UHGV virus genome: UHGV-0168745
DNA length: 21,678 nt
Direction: 5' to 3' (one strand)
Source: a virus
Shown: positions 3,274 to 21,678 of the stretch, one piece after another
Layout of the letters: every line of letters begins with the position of its first letter
Position numbering within the stretch: the first letter of the stretch is position 1
The notes under the pieces: model-generated
Told to the model about the DNA's origin: nothing
What the model saw: only the letters and a program-made list of their open reading frames with translations
Database searches by the model: none
Translations under genes and position numbers: made by a program

Positions 3274-4077
3274 ATGGACAACTTAACACTGCGTTACAAC
3301 TGTGTAGCGTTAGCCGGTGTTAACGCTCCAGCCACGCTGGAGAAAGACGCGGATGGTTATTACCGCGTACTTTTGGGTGCTTTGAATATCTTTAACTCGG
3401 AAGGGATTTTCTACGCCTATAACGAGTCTAAACACGTATTCGAACGCTCTAACATTTTCATGCGTAAAGTGAAAGCAGGGAATCTGTTCGGGGAAGAAGA
3501 TCACCCGGCACCAGAGCCTGGTATGACCGAAGCGCAATGGATTGATCGCAACGAATGGATTGAGACGAAAAACGTCTGTATGCACATTCGTGAAGTTGAA
3601 GTGATTCCAACCGACCAAACCTGTAACGGGTTGCCGGTTATGGAAATCTGGGGCTGGATTAAACCGAACCGTGAACGTGGTCCGTACTTAGCAGAAGCAC
3701 TCGAAAACCCGCACCAGAATGTGTGTTTCTCTCTGCGCGCGATCGTACGTGAAGGTTATGTGGGTGGCGTGAAAACACGTCGCTTGGATCGTCTGGTGAC
3801 GTTTGACTGGGTTATCGAAGACGGGTTGCAGATTTGTAACAAATACTCTGCGATTCAGCGCGGTAGCAAAGTTGCTCAAGAATCCACCCGCGTCCTGCTG
3901 GACCGTCGTGTTTCTCTCCAGGCGCTGGAGGACATCCTGCGGAATCCTAACACGACATCTGCTATCGCGACTGAATCTCGTCGTGGTGAAGTTCGTGCGT
4001 TGGCGCAGGAGTACCTGGCAATTGCTAACAAGAAAACTAACCTGCGTGTTATGGGTTTAGGTAACGGGAAGTGGTAA
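3274..4077 (+). CDS. hypothetical protein, 267 aa
   Basis: ORF preceded by GGGGA Shine-Dalgarno and a triple TTTTAC repeat; stop TAA 4075-4077 abuts the next ATG at 4078. Confidence 0.65.
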   Translation: MDNLTLRYNCVALAGVNAPATLEKDADGYYRVLLGALNIFNSEGIFYAYNESKHVFERSNIFMRKVKAGNLFGEEDHPAPEPGMTEAQWIDRNEWIETKNVCMHIREVEVIPTDQTCNGLPVMEIWGWIKPNRERGPYLAEALENPHQNVCFSLRAIVREGYVGGVKTRRLDRLVTFDWVIEDGLQICNKYSAIQRGSKVAQESTRVLLDRRVSLQALEDILRNPNTTSAIATESRRGEVRALAQEYLAIANKKTNLRVMGLGNGKW

Positions 4078-7329: not shown

Positions 7330-7812
7330 ATGGCAAAAGTAATGTCTACTAAAGAACTGGCTGCAATGATCGACGCGCTGGAAACTCCGGCAATGACCCT
7401 GGGCGAAGATGCTGTACTTAACGCAGACCCGTTAATCAAAATCTACGAAGAATCGCTTCCGGTCATCAAAGTGAACGATACCGATTATCGACTGACGTTA
7501 CAGGATGCGGATGCAGTTCGTCAACATGATGCGAACTTCCTGGAAGTCTACGGTAAGGTTGCGTCAGAAGTTATCGTTGAGAAAGCAAAAGCAGACGATG
7601 AACTGGTCGCGCTGGACCTTACCACGAATATTGGTAACGCGTCGTTCTCTACGGTGTTCTCACGTCCAACTGGGGAAACAGTAGGGGCGTCTGAATGGGC
7701 AGCTTCTATCGGCTTTGGTTACGGTGTACCTAAGTCAAAAGAGCTGGAAGGGAAAATGCGCAAAGTGTTTGCCGATGCGATGATGGCGGTCGATGACGAA
7801 GACGACGAATAA
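7330..7812 (+). CDS. hypothetical acidic protein, 160 aa, C-terminal DDEDDE tail
   Basis: ORF with TAAGGA 9 nt upstream; about 19% D+E by manual count and an acidic C-terminus; followed by an intrinsic terminator. Confidence 0.5.
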   Translation: MAKVMSTKELAAMIDALETPAMTLGEDAVLNADPLIKIYEESLPVIKVNDTDYRLTLQDADAVRQHDANFLEVYGKVASEVIVEKAKADDELVALDLTTNIGNASFSTVFSRPTGETVGASEWAASIGFGYGVPKSKELEGKMRKVFADAMMAVDDEDDE

Positions 7813-7830
7813 GATCGCCATTATTTCAGG

Positions 7831-7856
7831 AGCCCGACTACATCGGGCTTTTGTTC
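7831..7856 (+). terminator. intrinsic terminator (AGCCCG-actacat-CGGGCT + TTTTGTT)
   Basis: 6-bp GC stem, 7-nt loop, U-tract immediately after, 19 nt beyond stop codon at 7812. Confidence 0.55.
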
Positions 7857-7973
7857 CTGAAGAAAAAATCAATCCTACAAAATGGCAACAACCTCTTTCT
7901 CGGAAGCCAGGGCCACCCAGACCAATTGATGGTCTGGTTTACCTGAGTCACCGACGGAGAAAATAAAATCTAG

Positions 7974-8004
7974 GGCGGTCTTATGACCGCCTTATTTTTT
8001 TTTT
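7974..8004 (+). terminator. strong intrinsic terminator (GGCGGTC-ttat-GACCGCC followed by a 13-nt T-rich run)
   Basis: Perfect 7-bp GC stem, 4-nt loop, then TTATTTTTTTTTT at 7992-8004; second terminator in tandem, about 120 nt after the first. Confidence 0.65.
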
Positions 8005-8023
8005 GATTTCAGGAGATAAAACA

Positions 8024-8581
8024 ATGCAAAACTTATTCGACGGGTATCCCATGGCCAATGAAAAGCCGAATACAGAACGGGCTGTCCCGCTTCCTAACGT
8101 CATGAATCGTACAGAAGTCATTAACCGCCTTAACCAGATCGGTGAAATCTTTACGTTGTCTATGGAAGCCACTTTAGATGATGCGTTTCCACACATCGCA
8201 GGTTGGCCTGCTGAAACGATCCCACACACCATCAACGGCTACCAGCGTTTCTTAACCGAAATACGTAGCAGTTCCGTCGGCAATATCATCGCCGGTTACA
8301 TTATCCGTTTCAAACAACTTCTACTGATTGAATTCGGTGAAGGTGTGTTGGAAGCATTGGAATCTGAACTGATTACTTTACACAACAACGAAATTATACG
8401 CAACGAAAAAGGAAACGGTGACGCAGAACCAACCCTGTGGCGTGTTGCTTATCCAGACGATACCACCAACACACCGCCTACCACGTTCGATTTACTCTCT
8501 ACGTTCCTGCTGTTAATGCAGATGAAAAACTTAATTATTCGTTCTTCCGCTCGTAAACATCTGGCGCAAGAAGAAAAATAA
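8024..8581 (+). CDS. hypothetical protein, 185 aa (start ATG 8024 preferred over TTG 8003)
   Basis: AGGAG at 8011-8015 lies 8 nt before ATG 8024; the ORF-track start at 8003 is a TTG inside the terminator T-run. Stop TAA 8579-8581. Confidence 0.55.
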   Translation: MQNLFDGYPMANEKPNTERAVPLPNVMNRTEVINRLNQIGEIFTLSMEATLDDAFPHIAGWPAETIPHTINGYQRFLTEIRSSSVGNIIAGYIIRFKQLLLIEFGEGVLEALESELITLHNNEIIRNEKGNGDAEPTLWRVAYPDDTTNTPPTTFDLLSTFLLLMQMKNLIIRSSARKHLAQEEK

Positions 8582-8585
8582 AAGC

Positions 8586-8626
8586 TACCTACCTCCTTGA
8601 CGGAGGTAGGTAAACTTATTTTTTTT
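8586..8626. terminator. bidirectional intrinsic terminator between convergent genes (TACCTACCTCC-ttgac-GGAGGTAGGTA, T-run on + strand, GCTTTTATTTTT on - strand)
   Basis: Perfect 11-bp inverted repeat 8586-8596 / 8602-8612, flanked by T-rich tracts on both strands; sits between the + gene ending at 8581 and the - gene ending at 8629. Confidence 0.6.
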
Positions 8627-8628
8627 GC

Positions 8629-9504
8629 TTAACGAAGCTGATTTGCCATCTGCTCGTCGGACACAGAACGATAACCGCCAGCCGTAGCATCGACGTCTGG
8701 GTTGATACCGTTGGTCTGCTGAGACGGAGTAAGCCACAGTTTGCGCTCGTAAGGACGCAGACCGTAAAGCTTCATGCGCTCCAGTTCTTTCTGAGCTGCC
8801 TGCATCGGACCCCAACCTGTCCATTGCTGGGAGGTGAAGGTGATAGACAGTTCGTTGGTCTGAGGACCGGTGTTCGGATCGCGTTCACCGATATCCTGAC
8901 CGTTAGACTCAGGAGCCATGTTCGTCAGCCACCACGCGTTCTGCGGTTTACGCTGATACGCATCCGGTTCGAAATACAGCACGGTCATGCTGTACATATC
9001 CGGCAGGTGATCCGGCACGTTCGGGTTGATTGCCGCCAGACCAGGGTGGCCAGTGTGCGGGTCACAAACACCGTAAACCAGCCACGCCCACAGCATGTTC
9101 TGATACACTTTACCCAGTTTATCCGGGGTCGTGTGTGTAACGGAAGACAGTGCTTCCGTTACCAGACCAGCTTCGTACTGAACGCGGTTGTTACGTCCCT
9201 GCTGAGTCTGTACGTACTCAGCACTCAGGGATTTGTCCAGACCGGTAATCGTGGTGTGAACTTCGATGAATGATTTGATTGCCTGACGCCACAGTTGTGG
9301 GTTCGGCATGTAATCAACCCAACGAGGGAATTCCATCACACGAGCGATTACGTTACGGCGCAGACGGTGGGCGTTGGTAACGAACTTACCAACCTGACCG
9401 ACCGGACCGTTTTGACCAGACGAGAAGGGGTTAACCATATCGTACTGGCCGCCATCGACATGGAGGCCCTGGTCAGGTAAAATCATGCGTTCTTTAATAG
9501 ACAT
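8629..9504 (-). CDS. virion structural protein, 291 aa; tentatively tail tube (position-based)
   Basis: ORF starts 3 nt after the stop of the upstream 685-aa gene on the same strand, with GGAGAG inside that gene's 3' end as Shine-Dalgarno. A large protein followed by a tightly coupled protein of about 290 aa recalls the sheath/tube arrangement of phiKZ-like myoviruses (recalled from memory). No sequence motif confirms it. Confidence 0.4.
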   Translation of the reverse strand: MSIKERMILPDQGLHVDGGQYDMVNPFSSGQNGPVGQVGKFVTNAHRLRRNVIARVMEFPRWVDYMPNPQLWRQAIKSFIEVHTTITGLDKSLSAEYVQTQQGRNNRVQYEAGLVTEALSSVTHTTPDKLGKVYQNMLWAWLVYGVCDPHTGHPGLAAINPNVPDHLPDMYSMTVLYFEPDAYQRKPQNAWWLTNMAPESNGQDIGERDPNTGPQTNELSITFTSQQWTGWGPMQAAQKELERMKLYGLRPYERKLWLTPSQQTNGINPDVDATAGGYRSVSDEQMANQLR

Positions 9505-9507
9505 CTA

Positions 9508-11565
9508 TTAGCTCTCCGTACTGTCGCGACGATAAACTTTGATCGTCGTGTTGAACTGCGTCAACAGTACACCGCCTTCAGCTTTAATGTCCAGCGTGAT
9601 AGAGTAGCCATTGGCTTTATCATCCGCTGTCATATACGCACTCGGAGTAATGTCGGCAATATTATCCAGGCGACCTTCCAAACGCTCGGTGATTTTGTTT
9701 TCAATCATTTTCGCGCGTTCGTCGTCCGTCATACGGCTTTCACCGGACATATCTGCCCAAACTTGATCACTGACACGATAAACGTAGGTCAGGATGAAGT
9801 TAAACAGTGCGTTGTTCAGCACTGAACGTTCTTCGCTATAGATGGACTGGATAGCTGGGATGAACAGACGATAGTAGTCGCGGGAACGTGCAGTAACCAG
9901 AGACACATCCCAGTCGGACGCGTAAACCTCGTTACCTTTCCACGGCATACTCAGATCGTACAGATCTTCAATAATCGTCTCTTCACCACGGCTGAAACGA
10001 TACGCCGGTTTTGCACGACCTTCACCGGAACCGAGATACTTCGAGAAGAAGTTCGCAATGCTATAACACATCGGAACCGGTTTCTTGTAGCTCGAGTTAC
10101 GAATGAACGCAGACTGGCCGGTAATCATCCCACGACACGCTGGGGTACCGTAGTAAGATGATTCAGGTACGGACGTAATCATTTCGATCAACGCTGTCTT
10201 CACGTTCTCTTCGGTTTGTAAGTCATTACGACCTTCGTTATAAACGTGAGTACAGAGCGTCAGGAACGTATTACGAGAACGACCGATGAAATTCGTCAGT
10301 GCTTTCTTGGTATCCATGCTAAAGCCAGAATCCCAGAAACAGCCCAGAGAGTATTTCAGCTCGTTATCGTAACGGACTTTACCGCCATCCGGGAACAGGC
10401 TCATTTCACGACGTACGAGTTCGTCGTAAACGTCATTGCTCATGGTCCCGTTGCTACCGCCTTGCAGGTAGTGAATATTCGAAGCAGAGAAAACGATTTT
10501 ACCTACTTCATCAGACGGGTTAACTTGTAAACCGTCATACATCTGACCGGTTAAATCCAGACCGCCGAAGATATCGACCATATACGGGTCAGTGATGGCC
10601 GGTTTTGCATTCTGAATTTTGGACTGTGCCAGTTTCAGAACGGTTTCCAGGTTTTCACGATAGATGTAAAACTCTTCGAACGGACCGTAGTCGGGCAGGC
10701 CACCAATGTCCGGCATCGTCTGACGATAAGCATCTGGAACAACGACTTCGAAGTCCAGTTGGGTAGCCATCGGCTGATAGTATGCATCGGGCTTGAAGCT
10801 AACATTGATGCTGCTGAGACCTTTAAGGGTCTTCCAAATCACCGGTGATGTAACGCCTGCTAAGGTTTCAAACCACTGCAAAGCGTACATACGACCACCT
10901 ACGTTAGTCTGATAAGCAGACGCGATAGATGGGCTGGATTTTTCGTTCAGCGGAACCAGTTTAAAACCGAAACCGTTGACATCAGCACCCGCGTACGGGC
11001 CTTTAATGTCGAAGATCGGATAGAGTTTTGATTTCGCTTGGGTGGTTTCATCGGTCATTGTCCCTTCAGTTTCCACGCCTTTTTTCAGGGTGGATACATC
11101 TTCGACAACTTGCAGACGGAAGACCACTTTCAAGCCATCAACGTCTTCTTTCTTCTTCGGCTTACCACTTACGTCGTACTGGATAACGCCGTTCTTACGC
11201 TCATAAGCGGGAACTTTAGTTTCGAGTACGTCAGCCACCAGACGGACAGCTGCGATTTTCGCATCATCCGGTACCAGACGCTGATACATACACTCGTTAC
11301 CGTTGGCATTAAACATCGCCTGGAAGGGTGTGTTAAACGTCGCGTAATCGCCACGCAGGTCGAACAAATCACGACCAAGCAGAGACAATGCATTATCCCC
11401 GGATAACGGGAACGCCTCGTCGTCTACCCCGCGTGATGCAAAGGTGAAGATCAGCGGCTTATGAATCGGGTCACCAGTGGGACTCCGAACAAGTTCAGGG
11501 ACAGAGTTGTCCTGCCACCCTTGCTTGTTATTCAACGGCGCGCCGTTTCGTGGAATAAAACTCAT
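9508..11565 (-). CDS. large virion structural protein, 685 aa; tentatively contractile tail sheath (major capsid protein not excluded)
   Basis: Long ORF with GGAGA 6 nt upstream of ATG; size and coupling to the downstream 291-aa gene fit a sheath/tube pair. Assignment is architectural only. Confidence 0.4.
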   Translation of the reverse strand: MSFIPRNGAPLNNKQGWQDNSVPELVRSPTGDPIHKPLIFTFASRGVDDEAFPLSGDNALSLLGRDLFDLRGDYATFNTPFQAMFNANGNECMYQRLVPDDAKIAAVRLVADVLETKVPAYERKNGVIQYDVSGKPKKKEDVDGLKVVFRLQVVEDVSTLKKGVETEGTMTDETTQAKSKLYPIFDIKGPYAGADVNGFGFKLVPLNEKSSPSIASAYQTNVGGRMYALQWFETLAGVTSPVIWKTLKGLSSINVSFKPDAYYQPMATQLDFEVVVPDAYRQTMPDIGGLPDYGPFEEFYIYRENLETVLKLAQSKIQNAKPAITDPYMVDIFGGLDLTGQMYDGLQVNPSDEVGKIVFSASNIHYLQGGSNGTMSNDVYDELVRREMSLFPDGGKVRYDNELKYSLGCFWDSGFSMDTKKALTNFIGRSRNTFLTLCTHVYNEGRNDLQTEENVKTALIEMITSVPESSYYGTPACRGMITGQSAFIRNSSYKKPVPMCYSIANFFSKYLGSGEGRAKPAYRFSRGEETIIEDLYDLSMPWKGNEVYASDWDVSLVTARSRDYYRLFIPAIQSIYSEERSVLNNALFNFILTYVYRVSDQVWADMSGESRMTDDERAKMIENKITERLEGRLDNIADITPSAYMTADDKANGYSITLDIKAEGGVLLTQFNTTIKVYRRDSTES

Positions 11566-11627
11566 GGAACGTCTCCATATTCAGTCTTTAAGACCTTGAA
11601 AAAGGGTCATACTAAGGTATCATACTC
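11566..11627. promoter_or_regulatory. 62-bp divergent intergenic region (putative divergent promoters/operator)
   Basis: Separates divergent starts at 11565 (-) and 11628 (+); contains near-palindrome GTCTTTAAGAC (11584-11594) and direct repeat TCATACT x2 (11608-11614, 11620-11626). No canonical -35/-10 pair identified. Confidence 0.3.
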
Positions 11628-12536
11628 ATGGCACTCAAAAACGCTTACAACGGTACTCCGTTTAATACCATAGACCTTACCCGCTTACACGCGGATTTGG
11701 AACTGGCTCGTAAAGTCAATCAGACCGTTGCACAGTCTGACGAGGTACATTACGTTATCGAAACTGCCGATGTAAAACCGTTCCCGTTACCGATCGTCAT
11801 CGGTGATGACGTGTACGTTGACGCACGAACTTTCACTACGCTGGATAAGAATGGCGTACTGAAAATCCGTAACCCCATTGAGCACCAATTACGTCTCGAC
11901 GAAGCACGTTGGGAATTAGTGTGGAAACGGAACAATGATAAGCTCGGTACATTAATGTCACGCATGTCTTATCACCATGAGATCTTCAGCAGGTGGATTA
12001 GCGATGCGATTGAACACACCTACGCACTTGCTCCATATCAAAGCGGTCAAGTCAAGGCACTCGCTGCCCTGTTTTCCGTAGGACAGTTCTACAACAACTT
12101 CGAAGATGAAGTTAAAATGCTGAGAATGCAGCAATCGTTAGAGCGTGAACTTCGCCTCGGACCACAGATTTTTGAAACCGTTACTGGCAACACAGAATTC
12201 CTGTTCCCGCGTAATATCGGTGAATTTGTCGAGATGGTCAAAGCCGCGGACATTACCGCACGCTTAAAAGATCTGAGTGTCGTTAGTCTGCAAGGTATGT
12301 TGGCGACAAGCCTGGGTAGCTTTATCAGCTACGACCGTCAGCTCGTTACCAGCGCTATCGAATATCCACCATCTCTGTTCGTCATTGTCCGCACGTGTTT
12401 AGAGAACGTGATATTTAACCGCTCCCGTTTAGGTGGCCTGATTAAGAAATGTGACGTGGCAAAACGTAAAGACGCGTTTATCATGGCATACGACACGCTG
12501 CTTAATCAAAACACCAAACCGATAAACATCCAGTAA
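11628..12536 (+). CDS. hypothetical protein, 302 aa
   Basis: ORF with TAAGGT 9 nt upstream; first gene of a + strand block that ends with the terminase. Confidence 0.6.
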   Translation: MALKNAYNGTPFNTIDLTRLHADLELARKVNQTVAQSDEVHYVIETADVKPFPLPIVIGDDVYVDARTFTTLDKNGVLKIRNPIEHQLRLDEARWELVWKRNNDKLGTLMSRMSYHHEIFSRWISDAIEHTYALAPYQSGQVKALAALFSVGQFYNNFEDEVKMLRMQQSLERELRLGPQIFETVTGNTEFLFPRNIGEFVEMVKAADITARLKDLSVVSLQGMLATSLGSFISYDRQLVTSAIEYPPSLFVIVRTCLENVIFNRSRLGGLIKKCDVAKRKDAFIMAYDTLLNQNTKPINIQ

Positions 12537-12546
12537 GAGGTCCACT

Positions 12547-15063
12547 ATGGAGAACTGGCTGGTCGCCCACGCCATCCAAAAAGCGTGGCAGCGTCCATAT
12601 CTCGACGGGGTGCTTAACATCGCACCCTTCCGTCTTTCACCCAAGACCGGGGCGATCGGCTTTTTCAAACACGGTCGGATTCCGGTCGCTTTACCGAAAG
12701 AGAATTCGTGGTGGCACGCTTACGCAATTGATAAGCTCCACGTAAACTGGGGGAACCTTGCTATTCCCCTAAACCGTTGGAAGAAGCTTTCTACGTGTGT
12801 AAACGGCTTCAGTACCTGGATTCAGGTGTATAACGAAAACGGAACAACGATTCCGTCCGAATACGTGTACTTCTACCGTAACAGCGCAGGGATGGTTTAC
12901 ATGGCTATCCCGCAATCCGATCGCTACGCCTGGCTGGACAACGATCCTTGCTACCTGCGAATTTATCCGGGTTACAGCGGGGGTGAAAACGCACCGTATA
13001 TTAACCCGACGACGGTTGAGTTCTATTCACCGCCGAACCGTGAACAGGTGCAAAAAGTTATTGACCGATTCAACTATCTGAAGCAACAAAACAAAGGGTA
13101 CGTTGAATTCTGGTTAAACGGGGAACTGGTTGATTCTCCGAAGCCTGCGGACATTAAAACGTGGGACGATATCGATATCCGGGTTGATGGTCGTGTTCGT
13201 CGCGTTGTGGAATTCCGTTGTGGGGACTTACAGACGTTTATGTCCACACTGGACAGCAAACGAAAATACCTCCTTCACATTCCGAAAAAAGACGGTATCT
13301 GGATTTTTAATAACGATGCAGAAATCCAGCTTTACTGGAAAGGCAGGGGGCGTTATTACCACCGTCATCGTCACCAGGCATTGCGGCAACTGACATGGAA
13401 CGATCTGTCTATTCCGACTGAACGTATTGCGAAATACCGTAATGTCTTTAGCGAATCTATCACCGACTTGGATGATTTGGTCATCCGTCTGATTATTCGC
13501 GATGACTATCTGGATATTACACCGCTGTATAACTCCGCACACATTCATGATCTGTATCGGTTGTCTGATGACCTGATTATCGATGCGATGATTGGTGCAA
13601 ACGCAAACGTAACAGAGTGGCAAGCGGCTAATCTGGAACAAGCTGCTTTTAACCGACTGGCAGCGGCTAAGCTTGAGAACATCACGCGAGATTTGTGTAC
13701 CGATGCCTACGGTTACAACGCAGTAAGTCGTTATACTGCTGACACCCCACAACGACTTACGTTAACCGAAGGGGGCTACCGTGCTACGCTGCCTGCGTTA
13801 CTGGCAACCAACTCGACGGTATACGAATACGACGCCGATGGGTTGTTGTTAGAGGCGCATCAAAACCGTGGCTACGACGTTTACCAGGCACGTAACCCTA
13901 ACGCCAGAATTATCGAAGCGATTGAAGGGGATAAAGACGAGGCAGTAACTATCGTTGATAACGCCGCCGACTTCGAGATTCAAGAAGGTCAAAACGTTAA
14001 CTTGTGGTTACGTAAAGTTATCGATGACATTCCACGAGACGAATATCTGAAAGCGGTAGAAGGGACGGATTACACCCGTGACGGTAATAACATTACCTGG
14101 ACGGTGGACCGTACTCGTCGTCATCCTACGGTGATTTACGACGATCGTCATCTGTATTTCGAAATCGATGTGGCAGTCAGAGAAGGGGAGATTCGTATTC
14201 CTATTCTGGCTCGTAACCAAGAAGGTAGTCAGCGCACGTTATGGATTCCGATGGAAACCGTTGAAGTGTGGTTAAACGGGCACCCTCTGGTACACGGTAT
14301 CGATTATCATGTCATTTGGCCAGAAATCGTCGTAGTGTGTAAAGCGTGGATGAGTGACGGGGACGAAAACCGTATCGCGGTACGTTGTCGTGGTGTAACC
14401 GGTGAACTTCGTGTTCCAAAACACGGCTTTGTCTCCAGTGGCTTGCTGTCGAACAACAGCCAGTTCGATTGTCGTGATGATAAAGTTATCCGTGTAGTTG
14501 CAGGCGGTTCTTTACTGTTACGCGACGAAGTGGTATTCCGTGAAGACAACACGGTGGGTGTCAATATTGTCGATGACGGCTATCCGTACTCTGTTGACGA
14601 TCCAACCATACCGTTACGTACGCTGGTAACAGGGGATACGTATACGTTACGTGATGTGGCTCGTGACTTGGACTCCCGTGTAGAAAACTACATGTCTAAC
14701 TGGTTCCCGACACCGCCACCACAGAATCCTGTACCGTTGCCGCATTTGTATCATCTTTATTCGCCAACGTTGAATAAAATCTTGTGGGATTACTTACAGG
14801 GTATTCTCACCCTGGTAGAAGACGACCCGGATTACCGTATCTCAACGACACAGTTGGATGAGATTATGGAGCGGTATAAAGACCTGCTTCCGTTCGACCC
14901 TGCGTATATCGGTTACGATAAAGCGTTTGTCAAACTCCATCCTCATGTGAAATATCAAACCGTGGAAGTTAACGAACTCGGGTTCGCGTTTTTGGATCGC
15001 GTTAACGAGCGGTATCTGAATGGTGAAGTTCAGCTGAACCAGTATCTGAAAATCAAGGGTTAA
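12547..15063 (+). CDS. hypothetical large protein, 838 aa (possibly virion/morphogenesis)
   Basis: 2.5-kb ORF with TAAGAGG 6 nt upstream; no enzymatic motif recognised by eye; co-oriented with and upstream of the terminase. Confidence 0.65.
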   Translation: MENWLVAHAIQKAWQRPYLDGVLNIAPFRLSPKTGAIGFFKHGRIPVALPKENSWWHAYAIDKLHVNWGNLAIPLNRWKKLSTCVNGFSTWIQVYNENGTTIPSEYVYFYRNSAGMVYMAIPQSDRYAWLDNDPCYLRIYPGYSGGENAPYINPTTVEFYSPPNREQVQKVIDRFNYLKQQNKGYVEFWLNGELVDSPKPADIKTWDDIDIRVDGRVRRVVEFRCGDLQTFMSTLDSKRKYLLHIPKKDGIWIFNNDAEIQLYWKGRGRYYHRHRHQALRQLTWNDLSIPTERIAKYRNVFSESITDLDDLVIRLIIRDDYLDITPLYNSAHIHDLYRLSDDLIIDAMIGANANVTEWQAANLEQAAFNRLAAAKLENITRDLCTDAYGYNAVSRYTADTPQRLTLTEGGYRATLPALLATNSTVYEYDADGLLLEAHQNRGYDVYQARNPNARIIEAIEGDKDEAVTIVDNAADFEIQEGQNVNLWLRKVIDDIPRDEYLKAVEGTDYTRDGNNITWTVDRTRRHPTVIYDDRHLYFEIDVAVREGEIRIPILARNQEGSQRTLWIPMETVEVWLNGHPLVHGIDYHVIWPEIVVVCKAWMSDGDENRIAVRCRGVTGELRVPKHGFVSSGLLSNNSQFDCRDDKVIRVVAGGSLLLRDEVVFREDNTVGVNIVDDGYPYSVDDPTIPLRTLVTGDTYTLRDVARDLDSRVENYMSNWFPTPPPQNPVPLPHLYHLYSPTLNKILWDYLQGILTLVEDDPDYRISTTQLDEIMERYKDLLPFDPAYIGYDKAFVKLHPHVKYQTVEVNELGFAFLDRVNERYLNGEVQLNQYLKIKG

Positions 15064-15065
15064 TC

Positions 15066-16706
15066 ATGGCCTTAACAACTGACATTATCAACAAGGATCG
15101 CGGGTTCCGTGTGTGGCGTCCTGAGGAACTCTATGCGCCCGAACGCCCTACCGGATACGTACCGAACCCGAAAGATCTGATCGTTAACGATATCACTTCA
15201 GGTTTCGATATCGTCGTAAGCGTTAACTACGCCAAACCGTCATGGGAAACCGAACCGTGGGGTGGTGTAGGGGTGGCTAACCAAGACGGACGTCTGAACG
15301 GCCACTACCCGCTACGCAGTGATAAATACCGCGTCTACGTGGATTCTACGAAGCTTCCAGCAACGATGGTGTTGGATAATGCACTCACCTTCGAAGGGCC
15401 GGATGTGGACGGCGTGCGTATTTTCCGGGGCAGTAAAGTCGACGACAGTGCTGAAATCCTCTCCGGCTATTACAAAGACGGTAAGTTAAAATACACTTAC
15501 CTGCCGGTACAGACGATTTCCGTCGAAGGTGCTGAACGTGTCGTTAAACAAACGCTACCGGGTGCCTGCCTAGCTGAGGTCGAAAACGGTGAAGAGTGTA
15601 TGTTCGCGGTTTACTCCGACGTCGGTAACGTGGTACAAATCGGTCATGCGCACATCATCAAAACGAATCTGGTGATGGCACAAGAGACGCCAGCGCGTAC
15701 GGTGTTAGGTATTAAGTTGGTGTCACCGTTCCTGGTGGACAACGACGGCACCACACTGACGCTACCGATCAACATGCCAATCGAATCCATACCGCTTTGG
15801 TGTGATGTGGTTTACAGTGACGGTACAAAACGTTTACCTATCGACCAGGCGCGTGTAAAATTCAATGGGCTGCGTAACGCAGGCTCTCACGACACGTTCT
15901 ATATCGCCTCTAACTCAGGTAATACGTTACCTTGTGTACTGAGCTATAAGCTGTCCAAAGGTGAAACTTACGGCGGTACCGATATCGTAGGCGATACCAT
16001 CGTGAAGAACTACACGGCGGTAACAGAACAGGTCGACGGTGCCTACAGCATGAAACTATTCGTTGTACCGAGATGGTTAGATGCAACGCGTGGTTATCGT
16101 CTGGACTTCTTGCTGTATAACCTGACGCGTGGTAAAGTTTACGATGCAACCGCACACGTGAACTACACCACAGGTACAACGTTTGACCCGTTACTGATGG
16201 GTGTTAAACAGCGTCTTAACGTCCAGGTCGATATCAGTAAGGTGGACAGCAAGTTCCGTGCGTTTATTCAGTCGCAGTCGTTTGCGATTACGCTGGTCAA
16301 TCCGGGTAACGAACTGAACTCGAACTTCATTCTGGAATACCTCCCAGACGGTATGAAGTACGGGGAAAACGTGTGGGCGGAGTTTAAATACTCTAACGTC
16401 AGCTATTCTGAAATCGACGTCAGCAACAAAGTGGCTTCGAAAGCAGAATGGCTGAAGTTGTTGTACGAACCGATTTATCCGTTGTACGATCGTCGTAATG
16501 AGTCTGAGCCACCTGAACCCACCCACTTCGAAATCCACGTCGGGGGTAAAGTCTACACCTACAGTGTCGATGAGTGGTTGGATAAAAAGGTTATCGATTA
16601 TCGCGTACCACTCGATGCACCGTTGGTGATTCGTTGGATACGCCGTACACCAACCGATACCTTAAACTTAGCCGCATCACCAATGCTGGCGCACCACATC
16701 GAATAA
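15066..16706 (+). CDS. hypothetical protein, 546 aa (possibly virion/morphogenesis)
   Basis: ORF starting 2 nt after the upstream stop (TAATCATG); AAGGG Shine-Dalgarno; no motif recognised. Confidence 0.65.
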   Translation: MALTTDIINKDRGFRVWRPEELYAPERPTGYVPNPKDLIVNDITSGFDIVVSVNYAKPSWETEPWGGVGVANQDGRLNGHYPLRSDKYRVYVDSTKLPATMVLDNALTFEGPDVDGVRIFRGSKVDDSAEILSGYYKDGKLKYTYLPVQTISVEGAERVVKQTLPGACLAEVENGEECMFAVYSDVGNVVQIGHAHIIKTNLVMAQETPARTVLGIKLVSPFLVDNDGTTLTLPINMPIESIPLWCDVVYSDGTKRLPIDQARVKFNGLRNAGSHDTFYIASNSGNTLPCVLSYKLSKGETYGGTDIVGDTIVKNYTAVTEQVDGAYSMKLFVVPRWLDATRGYRLDFLLYNLTRGKVYDATAHVNYTTGTTFDPLLMGVKQRLNVQVDISKVDSKFRAFIQSQSFAITLVNPGNELNSNFILEYLPDGMKYGENVWAEFKYSNVSYSEIDVSNKVASKAEWLKLLYEPIYPLYDRRNESEPPEPTHFEIHVGGKVYTYSVDEWLDKKVIDYRVPLDAPLVIRWIRRTPTDTLNLAASPMLAHHIE

Positions 16707-16715
16707 ACATAACAA

Positions 16716-16741
16716 GCCTCCTACCCGAAAGGGTAGGAGGC
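16716..16741 (+). other. perfect 11-bp hairpin with GNRA (GAAA) tetraloop upstream of the terminase start
   Basis: GCCTCCTACCC-gaaa-GGGTAGGAGGC read directly; no U-tract; the terminase Shine-Dalgarno GAGGAG (16742-16747) starts right after the 3' arm. Confidence 0.45.
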
Positions 16742-16752
16742 GAGGAGTCTGT

Positions 16753-18861
16753 ATGATATTGCGAGAATCGGATTGGCGTTATTATCCGGGCGCGATTGTG
16801 GACGATAAAACCACGAACAAATCGTTTATCAAGTTTGCCAATATCCTAAAAAAGTTAGGCGTAAAACACTGGTATATCCACCTCGCGTTACATAACCCTT
16901 TACTGCAAGGGGTCGATCCTTTTGACGAAAACCTAACGGATGAACAGAAGGCGTACATCACTATCGAGTGCGCCGAAAACCCCTGGTACTGGTTTAGAGA
17001 ATGTGTCAGGGTACCTGCGGACGGTATGAAATACGGTTCCCCGTTCCGTATCGACCGTGGTAACTTTTCAATGTATTGGATTTTCTTCAACAACATTGAC
17101 GCCGCAGTCGAGTTCCTACGTCAGCACGGTAAAACCGTCGGGATGAGTGGGTTACTGTTATGGTTAATCCGGTTTCTGGAAAACTCCCGTACGATTCTTA
17201 TCACAAAAGGCCCAGCCCTGCGTGAAGAAACCATTAACAAACTCAAACAGTTACGTAATGGTCTACCGCCGTATCTGTGGCCTGCACATCCCGATGACCC
17301 AGATAACCGTGAAACGTTTGCCTGCTTAGCGCAGGGTAATAAACTGATTACCGGTATCGGCCAAAACGACCCAGAATCTGCTAACGGTATCGGTCGTGGA
17401 CTGACCGCAGGACGTCTGTTCTCGGACGAAGGCCCCTTTACCAAAAATATCCATCACATCCTACCTGCTGCACTTGCATCAGGTACAGCAGCGCGTTTGA
17501 TTAACGAATCTGAAGGGGTTCCTTACGGTAACGTATTTGCAACAACACCTGGCGACTTAGCCACGGAAGAAGGCAAATACATGTACGAGCTGATGACGTC
17601 AGGGATTATGTGGGATGAACGTTACATTGATATCCCAACACGTAAACAGCTGATTGAGATTATTCGCTCGAACTCAACAGCAGAAGTCCCACGTATCATG
17701 TTCTACGTGAAATACAACCACCGTCAGCTCGGTACCACTGATGAACAGTTGGCAGCAATGATTGCGAACGCCAAAGGTACGCCTGATCAGATCCGTCGTG
17801 ACTTCGGGGGTGAATGGACAACCGGTGGTCTGAACAAGCCGTATTCGGTGGAAGATGCAGATCGTATGAATGCATCCCGTATGCGTGCCGTGTTTAAAGA
17901 TATTTCACCACAAAACTATGTTACCGACTGGTACTACACCGAAGCGGAAATGATGACGAAGCTCAAAGACCGTCACGTCATCGGCCTGGACACTTCCGAA
18001 GCGGTAGGTCGAGACGCGATCGCGATGTCCATCGTCAACGCCGTCACTGCGGAGTACGCCGGTAAGTTAACCGTTAACGAATCCAACGTTATCTCGTTCG
18101 CGATTCATTTAGCGGATTTTATGGTGCGATATCCTAACACGGTACTGATCCTGGAACGACGTTCTACGGGCTCGTCTGTGGCTGATGCAATTATCTTACA
18201 GCTTCAGAGTCGAGTGACAGATTTACATCGTAGATTGTTTGTGCGAATCACTCAGGACTACTCACGAACGGACGATCTCTACAAAGAGTATCACCGTGGC
18301 CCTATTGGTAGTGCCGAGAAGTTCTGGAACAAATTCCGCAAATACATCGGTTTCTCTACTGACCAGGAAAAACGTCGTAAACTGTACGGTGAGGTATTCA
18401 CTACAGCGTTGCGCTTATCCGCGGACAAACTCCGTTGCGGAGAACTCATCGACCAAATACTTAACCTCGTGGAGAAAAATGGTCGTATTGACCACAAAGC
18501 TTCAGGTCACGATGACCTCGTGATTTCTTGGTTACTTGCAATGTGGTTATTGCTGTTTGGGAATAACTTAGGGCATTACGAAATCAACAACAGTCGTTTG
18601 ATGATGCGTAATAGAAACTTAGCGGAGAATCGAGAAGGGGTGGATGAAGAGTTACAGCTCGAGGAGGAAGCGCGACAGCAGGAACTGATGGGGGAAATTG
18701 AGCGTCTTGTACGAACCACCAACGGGTTATTAGACCCGATTCAAGCAATGGCTGCTCGTAACCGTCTCCAGTCCCTCATTGCTCAACTTAACACTGATAC
18801 ACAAAACGTGGCGTCAATGGAAAGCTTGAGAGAGCTTATCCAGCGTCAGAGGATGAAGTGA
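16753..18861 (+). CDS. terL: terminase large subunit (T4 gp17-type ATPase/nuclease), 702 aa
   Basis: Deviant Walker A FLRQHGKT (residues about 121-128) resembles T4 gp17 SRQLGKT; C-terminal GHDDLVISWLLA resembles the T4 gp17 nuclease-domain motif (recalled as GYHDDLVMSLVIF). Extra C-terminal coiled-coil-like segment (EELQLEEEARQQELMGEIERL). Confidence 0.8.
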   Translation: MILRESDWRYYPGAIVDDKTTNKSFIKFANILKKLGVKHWYIHLALHNPLLQGVDPFDENLTDEQKAYITIECAENPWYWFRECVRVPADGMKYGSPFRIDRGNFSMYWIFFNNIDAAVEFLRQHGKTVGMSGLLLWLIRFLENSRTILITKGPALREETINKLKQLRNGLPPYLWPAHPDDPDNRETFACLAQGNKLITGIGQNDPESANGIGRGLTAGRLFSDEGPFTKNIHHILPAALASGTAARLINESEGVPYGNVFATTPGDLATEEGKYMYELMTSGIMWDERYIDIPTRKQLIEIIRSNSTAEVPRIMFYVKYNHRQLGTTDEQLAAMIANAKGTPDQIRRDFGGEWTTGGLNKPYSVEDADRMNASRMRAVFKDISPQNYVTDWYYTEAEMMTKLKDRHVIGLDTSEAVGRDAIAMSIVNAVTAEYAGKLTVNESNVISFAIHLADFMVRYPNTVLILERRSTGSSVADAIILQLQSRVTDLHRRLFVRITQDYSRTDDLYKEYHRGPIGSAEKFWNKFRKYIGFSTDQEKRRKLYGEVFTTALRLSADKLRCGELIDQILNLVEKNGRIDHKASGHDDLVISWLLAMWLLLFGNNLGHYEINNSRLMMRNRNLAENREGVDEELQLEEEARQQELMGEIERLVRTTNGLLDPIQAMAARNRLQSLIAQLNTDTQNVASMESLRELIQRQRMK

Positions 18862-19097
18862 TGGCTCCAATTTACTATTTGCTCGTGTTCTTTTCGTGGA
18901 TCGCGACGTATAAAATGATCCGAGAGAGTTACCAAGCGATAAAGGACTACGGTCGAACGCAAGGAATTCCTTTACGAAAAACACGATACGCGCAAGCATT
19001 GGCAGTATTTGGACTCATGATTGCGGGGACGTCAACCACGTACGCGCTAAACATGGTCTACTCGATACACCTCCTGGTAATGTCCGGGGCCCATTGA
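18861..19097 (+). CDS. small membrane protein, 78 aa, two predicted transmembrane segments; start overlaps terminase stop (TGATG)
   Basis: ATG 18861 overlaps the terL stop TGA 18859-18861; GAGGA 7 nt upstream; hydrophobic stretches PIYYLLVFFSWIATY and ALAVFGLMIAGTSTTYALNMVYSIHLLVM separated by a charged loop. Confidence 0.4.
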   Translation: MAPIYYLLVFFSWIATYKMIRESYQAIKDYGRTQGIPLRKTRYAQALAVFGLMIAGTSTTYALNMVYSIHLLVMSGAH

Positions 19098-19114
19098 AAT
19101 CTGTTAAACTAAAC

Positions 19115-19157
19115 TAGCCAGTAACCCGTTCGGGTTACTGGCTAACTCTTATTTTTT
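19115..19157. terminator. intrinsic terminator between convergent genes (13-bp stem TAGCCAGTAACCC / GGGTTACTGGCTA, loop gttc, then CTTATTTTTTATTT)
   Basis: Perfect inverted repeat 19115-19127 / 19132-19144; T-rich tract on + strand overlaps the stop codon of the - strand gene. Confidence 0.55.
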
Positions 19158-21629: not shown

Positions 21630-21678
21630 CTGTCTCTTATACACATCTCCGAGCCCACGAGACCCTAAGACATCTCGT
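21630..21678 (+). other. Illumina Nextera library adapter (Tn5 mosaic end + read-2 adapter + 8-nt index + start of P7), not biological sequence
   Basis: CTGTCTCTTATACACATCT (reverse complement of the Tn5 mosaic end) followed by CCGAGCCCACGAGAC, then CCTAAGAC (index-length octamer), then ATCTCGT (start of P7 ATCTCGTATGCC...). Confidence 0.9.

Follow-up and report, generated by a model that had tools for sequence, protein, structure and literature searches.

A phiKZ-type tail sheath and tail tube gene pair on a metagenome contig of the Asesino/SPN3US group

Two adjacent minus-strand genes in a 21,678-bp metagenome contig (the window, meaning the whole stretch of DNA analysed) almost certainly encode the two helical polymers, sheath and inner tube, of a contractile phage tail. 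Our analysis observed their gene structure, protein families, predicted folds, synteny and the conservation of the terminator that follows them. The pair belongs to a well-known family and the finding is an ordinary one, with little significance beyond the correct annotation of two genes. It fixes a function for genes annotated in public databases as 'Structural Protein', 'hypothetical protein', 'virion structural protein' or, in error, 'baseplate wedge protein', and it places the contig in a lineage of ~225 kb phiKZ-like jumbo phages of enterobacteria. No cultured representative of this lineage above ~80% DNA identity was found in the phage collection searched, and the lineage is well marked by its sheath and tube.

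The sheath and tube genes and their products

The tail sheath gene (685 aa; 9508–11565, minus strand, ATG start) is the orthologue of phiKZ gp29, SPN3US gp256 and phiKp24 gp118, and the tail tube gene (291 aa; 8629–9504, minus strand, ATG start) that of phiKZ gp30, SPN3US gp255 and phiKp24 gp119. In the list of open reading frames of the window the 685-aa frame comes first and the 291-aa frame begins 3 nt downstream on the same strand, with coordinates identical to those given in the original prediction. At 2058 and 876 nt in DNA of ~48% GC both frames are far longer than chance would give, and a database search returned hundreds of homologues for each. The junction (9505–9517, minus strand) packs an SD and two stops ahead of the tube ATG at 9504: the sheath stop TAA lies at 9510–9508, the spacer itself is a second in-frame stop, TAG (9507–9505), and the tube SD GGAGAG (9517–9512) sits within the last sheath codons, 7 nt ahead of the tube ATG. 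The sheath gene has its own SD, GGAGA (11576–11572, minus strand), 6 nt ahead of its ATG at 11565. The layout of the junction suits co-transcription and possible translational coupling. Sheath and tube genes are adjacent, in this order, in all 80 sequences compared (79 related loci and the window); the distance between them ranges from −8 to 148 nt (median 6) and is always 3–6 nt in close relatives.

Family membership and modelled fold make the 685-aa protein a tail sheath of the phiKZ gp29 type over its full length, as originally predicted. It matches PHROG 3242 ('tail sheath') at 4.6e-285 over residues 1–683 of 685 and covers the entire 231-position model of Pfam PF20961 (phiKZ_gp29PR; 1e-70). 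By sequence it also matches the cryo-EM chains of phiKp24 (8au1, 3e-73), Goslar (3e-64) and phiKZ gp29 (9xpf_A, 5e-55), the chains 8au1_A, 11ei_L and 9xpf_A aligning to approximately residues 8–681. A confident AF2 monomer model (pLDDT 91.3, pTM 0.87) was matched by Foldseek to 8au1_A (E 1.3e-59, TM 0.87) and 9xpf_A (E 1.2e-53, TM 0.86/0.89), in alignments spanning 686–698 columns, and to the isolated gp29PR crystal structure 3spe (TMt 0.84). Sheaths of T4 (gp18), P1, phi812, pyocin, AFP, PVC and VipA/B ranked lower, and the best 50 Foldseek matches were all chains of contractile tails or contractile injection systems, nearly all of them labelled sheath.

The model has the architecture of a gp29-type sheath, with inner N- and C-terminal domains and an outward gp29PR-like domain exposed at residues ~109–380. 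Among close relatives this outer domain is the least conserved part of the protein (identity 0.68 vs 0.82–0.84 elsewhere). The terminal arm segments have an identity of 0.83–0.84 in close relatives and a pLDDT of 50–68 in the monomer model; the arms of phiKp24 gp118 (M1–S21 and A667–G689) align with residues 1–21 and ~666–685 here (PMC9700779).

The original prediction had named a major capsid or shell protein as an alternative for the 685-aa product, taken here as an HK97-fold major capsid protein or a phage-nucleus shell protein (chimallin). The resemblance is one of size only, capsid and shell proteins of jumbo phages being ~600–750 aa long. Against it stand full-length membership of the gp29 sheath family and the high-confidence model with its TM of 0.86–0.89 to solved sheaths. 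Neither Pfam nor PHROGs gave a capsid or shell family for the protein, its PDB sequence matches and best 50 Foldseek matches hold no capsid chain, and the capsid protein of SPN3US is a separate gene, gp75 (PMC5105663). With no HK97 fold found, the outcome named as refuting the original prediction did not arise, and we excluded the capsid or chimallin identity on the family, PDB-sequence and Foldseek results; the probability left to it is vanishingly small. Judged by its 81% identity to SPN3US gp256, the sheath protein would assemble in the virion into a helical sheath able to contract, as cryo-EM has established for phiKZ, phiKp24 and Goslar and mass spectrometry for gp256 itself (PMC13250141, PMC9700779, PMC5105663).

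By the same kinds of evidence the 291-aa protein is a phiKZ gp30-type tail tube, again in line with the original prediction. It matches Pfam PF23806 (Phage_TTP_14) at 1.2e-92 over residues 4–290 of 291 and is also assigned to PHROG 3185; its sequence matches in the PDB are the Goslar tube (1e-34), phiKZ gp30 (1e-22) and phiKp24 8bfk (7.5e-19). The monomer model is of moderate confidence (mean pLDDT 69.7), with a core at residues 50–245 of pLDDT 70–90. Its best Foldseek matches are 9xpf_G (phiKZ gp30, 2.6e-20) and 8bfk_A (phiKp24, 6.8e-18), followed more weakly by AFP 6rao_F (5e-6), T4 gp19 5w5f_A (1.2e-5), PVC and other tubes, and it contains the tail-tube beta-sandwich core common to T4 gp19 and the eCIS tubes. 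A fold comparison had been proposed for both proteins; once run, it matched the one to sheath and the other to tube folds. Residues 1–49 and ~245–291 of the tube align with gp30 and are poorly predicted (pLDDT <65), which fits arms that would become ordered only on assembly; the roles of the N- and C-terminal segments are known from the phiKZ and phiKp24 assemblies (PMC13250141, PMC9700779).

A tube fold is not confined to the major tube subunit. Initiators such as phiKZ gp88 have it too (PMC13250141), the tube model also matches tube-like chains of the T4 baseplate and neck, and in some records the tube orthologue goes by the name 'baseplate wedge protein' or 'baseplate tail-tube junction protein'. 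The 291-aa product could on these grounds be a minor tube-fold protein, for example a tube initiator, a baseplate-tube junction or a ring close to the tail terminator. The best sequence and fold matches, however, are chains of helical tubes (9xpf_G, 8bfk and the Goslar 'Tail Tube'), the match to the gp30 tube family of Pfam runs the whole length, and the place immediately after the sheath gene is kept throughout the family. We set the minor identity aside on these points and regard it as very unlikely.

Known contractile tails and a proposed mechanism

The closest solved structures by sequence are the sheath and tube of phiKp24 (gp118/gp119; PDB 8AU1, 8BFK) and of Goslar, although these phages are from other lineages and the identity in structural alignments is only ~26–27%. 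With phiKZ gp29/gp30 (PDB 3SPE, 9XPF) the window proteins have in common their families, domain architecture, fold (sheath TM 0.86–0.89) and the gp25–gp30 gene block, but identity is only ~24–26% and the phiKZ spacers are longer, at 128 nt upstream of gp29 and 31 nt separating it from gp30. Core folds and the principle of contraction extend to T4 gp18/gp19, pyocin R2, AFP, PVC and the T6SS (VipA/B and Hcp). Sequence similarity to T4 and other contractile injection systems is, however, undetectable and TM falls to only 0.3–0.5; the outer domain of the sheath differs, and the tube, at 291 aa, is almost double the 163 aa of T4 gp19, with extra N- and C-terminal segments.

By analogy with the tails of phiKZ, phiKp24 and Goslar and with the proteomics of SPN3US, an assembly geometry, a contraction step, late timing, promoter use and coupling can be proposed for the pair. 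The 291-aa protein would stack as hexameric rings into a rigid inner tube serving as the conduit for DNA and ejected proteins, each subunit touching a neighbour within its ring through the N-terminal segment and the ring above through the long C-terminal one. Around this tube the 685-aa protein would polymerise into a six-start helix that is extended and metastable. Its lattice would be built by the inner N- and C-terminal domains and both terminal arms. The arms would enter the C-terminal domains of next-ring subunits, giving a mesh, and the gp29PR-like outer domain would face outward without lattice contacts. On a trigger from the baseplate, the sheath would contract and drive the tube through the cell envelope. 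Expression would be from a single late transcript carrying the sheath first and the tube second. This transcript would probably start at a TATG-type promoter in the 62-nt divergent spacer, used by the phage's own non-virion RNA polymerase, and would end at a bidirectional hairpin terminator. Tube translation would probably be initiated from the SD embedded in the 3' end of the sheath gene.

Genome context

Upstream of the sheath gene, and divergent from it, lies a homologue of phiKZ gp28 (302 aa; 11628–12536, plus strand; PF25614 1.3e-57, PHROG 3227) of the Pfam family named 'vertex-binding protein'; in relatives it is the divergent neighbour wherever it is detectable. It is followed at 12547–16706 (plus strand) by homologues of phiKZ gp27 (838 aa, DUF7193) and gp26 (546 aa), assigned by Pfam and PHROG and by sequence comparison with phiKZ (24% identity, E 1e-62, and 31%, E 6e-73, respectively). 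In phiKZ, gp27 is a scaffold and gp26 a cross-linker of the outer baseplate region (PMC13250141). Next comes the terminase large subunit (702 aa; 16753–18861, plus strand; PHROG 2 8.9e-64), where phiKZ has gp25 and SPN3US gp260. The block formed by tube and sheath on one side and gp28, gp27, gp26 and terminase on the other is thus collinear with phiKZ gp30–gp25, including the divergent gp28/gp29 junction. The window also carries an S80 prohead protease (3274–4077) and a fragment of a virion RNA-polymerase subunit.

Relatives whose sheath is 95–97% identical lie on contigs of 220,786, 224,831 and 225,000 bp, contigs carrying members of the same cluster reach 229 kb, and the tube family is found, among the matches listed, in phage records of 167–322 kb. 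The suggestion that this is possibly a jumbo phage is supported by the close relatives on contigs of 220–229 kb together with the phiKZ gp25–gp30 gene block. The evidence supports a phiKZ-like jumbo phage (>200 kb) with a genome of ~225 kb as estimated from close relatives.

The genome is that of an uncultured phage related to Asesino of Erwinia (Erskinevirus) and SPN3US of Salmonella (Seoulvirus), which are phiKZ-like jumbo phages of ~225–245 kb. The closest cultured relatives are Erwinia phages vB_EamM_Asesino (gp277/gp276) and phiEaH2 (Erskinevirus), which have the same gene order. In these relatives the sheath is 82% and the tube 96% identical (the tube vs Asesino gp276), and nucleotide identity to Asesino and phiEaH2 is ~76–80% over 52–62% of the window. 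The host genus of Asesino is Erwinia, whereas assemblies of Salmonella, Shigella and E. coli are the recorded source of the window's close relatives. SPN3US gp256 and gp255 (Seoulvirus) are 81% and 89% identical to the sheath and tube at equal lengths (681/685 and 291/291 aa). SPN3US has the same 3-nt spacer, divergent neighbour and terminator layout, and its 217–238 kb region is collinear with the whole window. It differs in a DNA identity of only ~75–80%, in the sequence of the terminator stem, in genome size (240 kb vs ~221–229 kb for the close relatives of the window) and in a small gene, absent from the window, between the homologues of 7330–7812 and 8003–8581. Mass spectrometry of SPN3US virions identified gp256 as the sheath (686 spectra) and gp255 as their 'major tail tube protein', and tailless mutant particles were without both (PMC5105663).

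Sheath and tube folds are common to tailocins, eCIS and T6SS, and many cluster members are filed under genome assemblies of Salmonella, Shigella and E. coli, as would be the case if the pair came from a bacterial contractile injection system or a defective prophage. The window, however, carries the terminase, the S80 prohead protease, the RNA-polymerase fragment and the gp26–28 homologues, is collinear with SPN3US and contains no tRNA or integration signature. Moreover, where a 'bacterial' record is of sufficient length for a judgement, it is a separate contig of ~120–244 kb, in many cases of 223–229 kb, which matches the size of a whole phage genome. We dismissed a tailocin, eCIS or T6SS origin on the phage head and packaging genes and the separate, phage-sized contigs, and consider a bacterial system or defective prophage extremely improbable.

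Flanking transcription signals

The divergent spacer between the sheath gene (minus strand) and the gp28-like gene (plus strand) is 62 nt long (11566–11627) and holds the SDs of both, GGAGA on the minus and AAGG on the plus strand. An alignment of 10 lineages revealed within it a 13-nt block, CCTTAGTATGACC (11605–11617, minus strand), that is invariant in all ten, down to a sheath identity of 62%. The block contains TATG at 11611–11608 (minus strand), the core of phiKZ nvRNAP late promoters, in which G is +1 (PMC4666361, PMC12809450). This match predicts a putative promoter with the sheath transcript starting 43 nt ahead of the ATG, at 11608. The phiKZ gp28–gp29 spacer carries CTAGTATGGTC, and TAGTATG occurs as a motif in the phiKZ and the window spacer alike. 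On the plus strand the same block gives TAAGG, likely the SD of the gp28-like gene; conservation of the 13-mer may in part reflect this SD of the opposite gene, the promoter core itself being only 4 nt.

The CCTTAGTATGACC block is single-copy in the window. A search before the other genes of the window found no recurrence of the motif TAGTATGAC, which is therefore not a general late-promoter consensus. Scanning 7800–12000 for sigma-70 sites gave 5 against 4.9 expected, thus no enrichment, and the one in the divergent spacer (11596–11623) is not meaningful because phiKZ-type phages use their own polymerases (PMC4666361). The divergent promoter region of the original prediction thus holds as a 62-nt divergent spacer, without sigma-70 enrichment and with a TATG promoter that is only predicted. 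A small hairpin (GACC...GGTC) in the 5' leader, past the putative +1, was rejected: it is no more stable than shuffles (z −0.61), and both its arms are invariant, without covariation. Rfam and tRNA scans found nothing, and a search of the literature library found no transcriptome or promoter map for SPN3US. It is possible, though we think it less probable than the contrary, that CCTTAGTATGACC and the GGTC after it act as an extended late promoter or leader element, specific to the sheath gene and read by the non-virion RNA polymerase. If so, it would be a natural, phylogenetically defined case of the determinants beyond TATG that make late promoters of jumbo phages strong. The conserved spacer motif is in this respect a small testable lead on late-promoter recognition.

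Downstream of the tube gene, the 47-nt convergent spacer (8582–8628) contains a hairpin at 8585–8613, TACCTACCTCC-TTGAC-GGAGGTAGGTA, with a perfect stem of 11–12 bp, an A-run upstream and a T-run downstream. A terminator scan called it on both strands, and its folds (−24.1 and −20.7 kcal/mol; z = −7.8 and −5.6) were equalled in stability by 0 of 200 shuffles, in agreement with the bidirectional terminator originally predicted. On its sequence, this predicted intrinsic terminator is one that ends both the sheath-tube transcript and the oncoming plus-strand transcript. An RNAalifold consensus of 12 terminators was uninformative (4 pairs, −1.75 kcal/mol), the stems varying so in sequence and length that MAFFT misaligned them, and conservation was therefore judged by folding each sequence separately. 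Each of the 17 sequences checked, 16 relatives and the window, had A-run, hairpin and T-run in this order after the tube gene, and the stems differed in sequence.

Identity and structure of the sheath and tube proteins

Two minus-strand ORFs of 685 aa (9508–11565) and 291 aa (8629–9504), whose coordinates were reproduced by the six-frame ORF list, had been proposed to be the sheath-then-tube pair of a phiKZ-like myovirus, with a major capsid or shell protein as the alternative for the larger product. The 685-aa protein matches Pfam PF20961 (phiKZ gp29PR; 1e-70) and, end to end, PHROG 3242 'tail sheath' (4.6e-285). Over almost its entire length, and on sequence alone, it aligns with sheath chains solved by cryo-EM from phiKp24 (8AU1; 3e-73), Goslar (3e-64) and phiKZ (gp29, 9XPF chain A; 5e-55). 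For structure prediction homologues were collected and 50 were aligned, giving a model with pLDDT 91.3 and pTM 0.87. Compared with the PDB using Foldseek, this model matched the sheaths of phiKp24 (E 1.3e-59, TM 0.87) and phiKZ (1.2e-53, TM 0.86/0.89), followed by those of T4, P1, phi812, phiCD508, R2 pyocin, AFP, PVC and T6SS. No capsid fold, the outcome named beforehand as speaking against a sheath, was found among these matches to the PDB, and the capsid reading of the 685-aa protein is thereby ruled out. Conservation of the sheath among close relatives is lowest in its outer domain (residues ~109–380; 0.68 identity, compared to 0.82–0.84 elsewhere), consistent with the exposure of this domain in solved homologous tails.

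The 291-aa protein matches PF23806 (Phage_TTP_14, 'Phage tail tube protein'; 1.2e-92) and PHROG 3185, and its sequence aligns with the tube chains of Goslar (1e-34), phiKZ gp30 (1e-22) and phiKp24 (7.5e-19). The tube model is less confident than that of the sheath (mean pLDDT 69.7, with the core, residues 50–245, at 70–90); its best structural matches are phiKZ gp30 (2.6e-20) and the tube of phiKp24 (6.8e-18), after which come the tubes of AFP, T4 (gp19; 1.2e-5), PVC and further eCIS. Both termini of the model are poorly predicted; these segments are the counterparts of arms through which subunits touch their neighbours in the tubes of phiKZ and phiKp24 (PMC13250141, PMC9700779), and their low confidence would fit such a role. 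Fold recognition returned sheaths for the one protein and tubes for the other; both parts of the original prediction are correct and the alternatives are excluded. By analogy with solved homologous tails, tube hexamers would stack on the baseplate and sheath subunits would polymerise around them into an extended lattice of high energy, in which an exchange of N- and C-terminal arms holds the subunits together; a baseplate trigger would then contract the sheath and drive the tube through the envelope.

Gene order and relatives

Read in the coding sense, the 3-nt sheath-tube spacer is TAG and adds a further stop, also in frame, to the sheath TAA. A Shine-Dalgarno sequence (GGAGAG) lies within the last sheath codons, 7 nt upstream of the tube ATG, and GGAGA stands at the usual distance upstream of the sheath ATG. 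Of the related loci in IMG/VR, all 79 have the tube gene 3' of the sheath gene and in the same orientation, across gaps of −8 to 148 nt (median 6).

The window is collinear with 217–238 kb of Salmonella phage SPN3US, whose gp256 and gp255 are 81% and 89% identical to the window's sheath and tube, respectively, and are absent or nearly so from tailless mutant particles (PMC5105663). Erwinia phage Asesino gp276 is 96% identical to the tube. The window's order, tube-sheath on one strand and gp28-gp27-gp26-terminase on the other, is that of phiKZ (gp30-gp29 / gp28-gp27-gp26-gp25), and of the two proteins encoded within 12547–16706 (+), that of 838 aa is a homologue of phiKZ gp27 (E 1e-62) and that of 546 aa a homologue of gp26 (E 6e-73); gp27 and gp26 build the outer baseplate of phiKZ (PMC13250141). 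An S80-family prohead protease (3274–4077, +; PF20034, 1.1e-82) and, by synteny with SPN3US, the 3' end of a gene for an RNA polymerase beta subunit, truncated where the contig begins (1–697, +), are hallmarks of phiKZ-like phages. The closest cultured phages share only about 75–80% DNA identity with the window, and none above about 80% was found in the phage collection searched; the sheath-tube pair adds a new, uncultured member to a family that is already well characterised.

Where SPN3US (ACQ60_gp013) and Asesino (ASESINO_274) carry a small gene of 67–68 aa, the window has a 190-nt gap (7813–8002), in which tblastn for a gene of this type found no trace. A strong terminator hairpin (7971–7994) followed by a T10 run closes this gap. 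The adjoining ORF (8003–8581, +) was mechanically called as 192 aa from TTG; gene callers predict 185 aa for it on this contig, its PHROG match starts at residue 23, and the true start is probably an ATG near 8024.

Terminators and a predicted late promoter

The original prediction had bracketed the pair with a divergent promoter region and a bidirectional terminator. Every structural detail of the pair (ORFs, 3-nt gap, terminator hairpin and 62-nt divergent spacer, 11566–11627) was confirmed; the promoter is predicted only, a sigma-70 scan giving no signal above chance. The terminator scan places a perfect 11–12-bp hairpin (8585–8613, both strands) in the 47-nt convergent spacer 8582–8628. 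This hairpin sits between an A-run and a T-run and is far more stable than its shuffled counterparts (z −7.8 and −5.6). An A-run, GC-rich hairpin and T-run occur 3' of the tube gene in 17/17 sequences (window and 16 relatives), with stems that vary by lineage (e.g. CCTACCTCC, CCTCACTCC, CCTCTCTCC, CCCACTCC, CCGACCCC, CAGAGACCGGC). This retention of stem structure with changing sequence argues for a functional bidirectional terminator. Further GC-rich hairpins, which look like terminators or attenuators, lie in spacer 16707–16752 upstream of the terminase gene (CCTCCTACCC-GAAA-GGGTAGGAGG, its stem resembling the sheath-tube terminator stem) and, followed by a T-run, in the convergent spacer 19098–19155 beyond 18858–19097 (CCAGTAACCC-GTTC-GGGTTACTGG).

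The spacer between the sheath gene and the divergent gp28-like gene contains a 13-mer, CCTTAGTATGACC (11605–11617, sheath strand), that does not vary across ten lineages reaching down to 62% sheath identity. Within it lies TATG, the core that late promoters of the phiKZ non-virion RNA polymerase require and whose G is the transcription start (PMC4666361, PMC12809450), and the phiKZ gp28-gp29 spacer carries CTAGTATGGTC at the equivalent place. On these grounds we infer a late transcript start at 11608, 43 nt upstream of the sheath ATG. We keep this start as a prediction since a stretch of the block that reads TAAGG on the opposite strand probably serves the gp28-like gene for ribosome binding, since the motif has no second copy within the window, and given the sigma-70 result.

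Genome size, occurrence and the contig end

The window is a metagenome contig from ENA (NODE_202_length_21678 of ERZ1026973). An identical sheath sequence is in NCBI (DAL76565.1, 'MAG TPA: Structural Protein [Caudoviricetes sp.]'), and the exact tube sequence is recorded on 557 contigs. A possible jumbo genome had been suggested, and this is well supported for the phage of which the window is a fragment because IMG/VR relatives with 95–97% identical sheaths lie on contigs of 220,786–225,000 bp and, among the matches listed, phage records with a member of the tube family measure 167–322 kb; the size is taken from these relatives. Many entries in the 90% protein clusters of sheath and tube are filed under assemblies of Salmonella enterica, Shigella flexneri or E. 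coli isolates, where they occupy separate contigs about 120–244 kb long (many 223–229 kb). Such contigs look like complete genomes from this lineage of jumbo phages that accompany bacterial isolates, be it through a carrier state, pseudolysogeny or contamination.

The last 48 bases of the window (21631–21678) consist of CTGTCTCTTATACACATCTCCGAGCCCACGAGAC, CCTAAGAC and ATCTCGT, which we take to be Illumina Nextera transposase adapter read-through with an i7 index (N726). They also match termini of unrelated phage records (90–100%) and are an assembly artefact, not phage sequence, giving the last ORF a false C-terminal peptide (...AVSYTHLRAHETLRHL).
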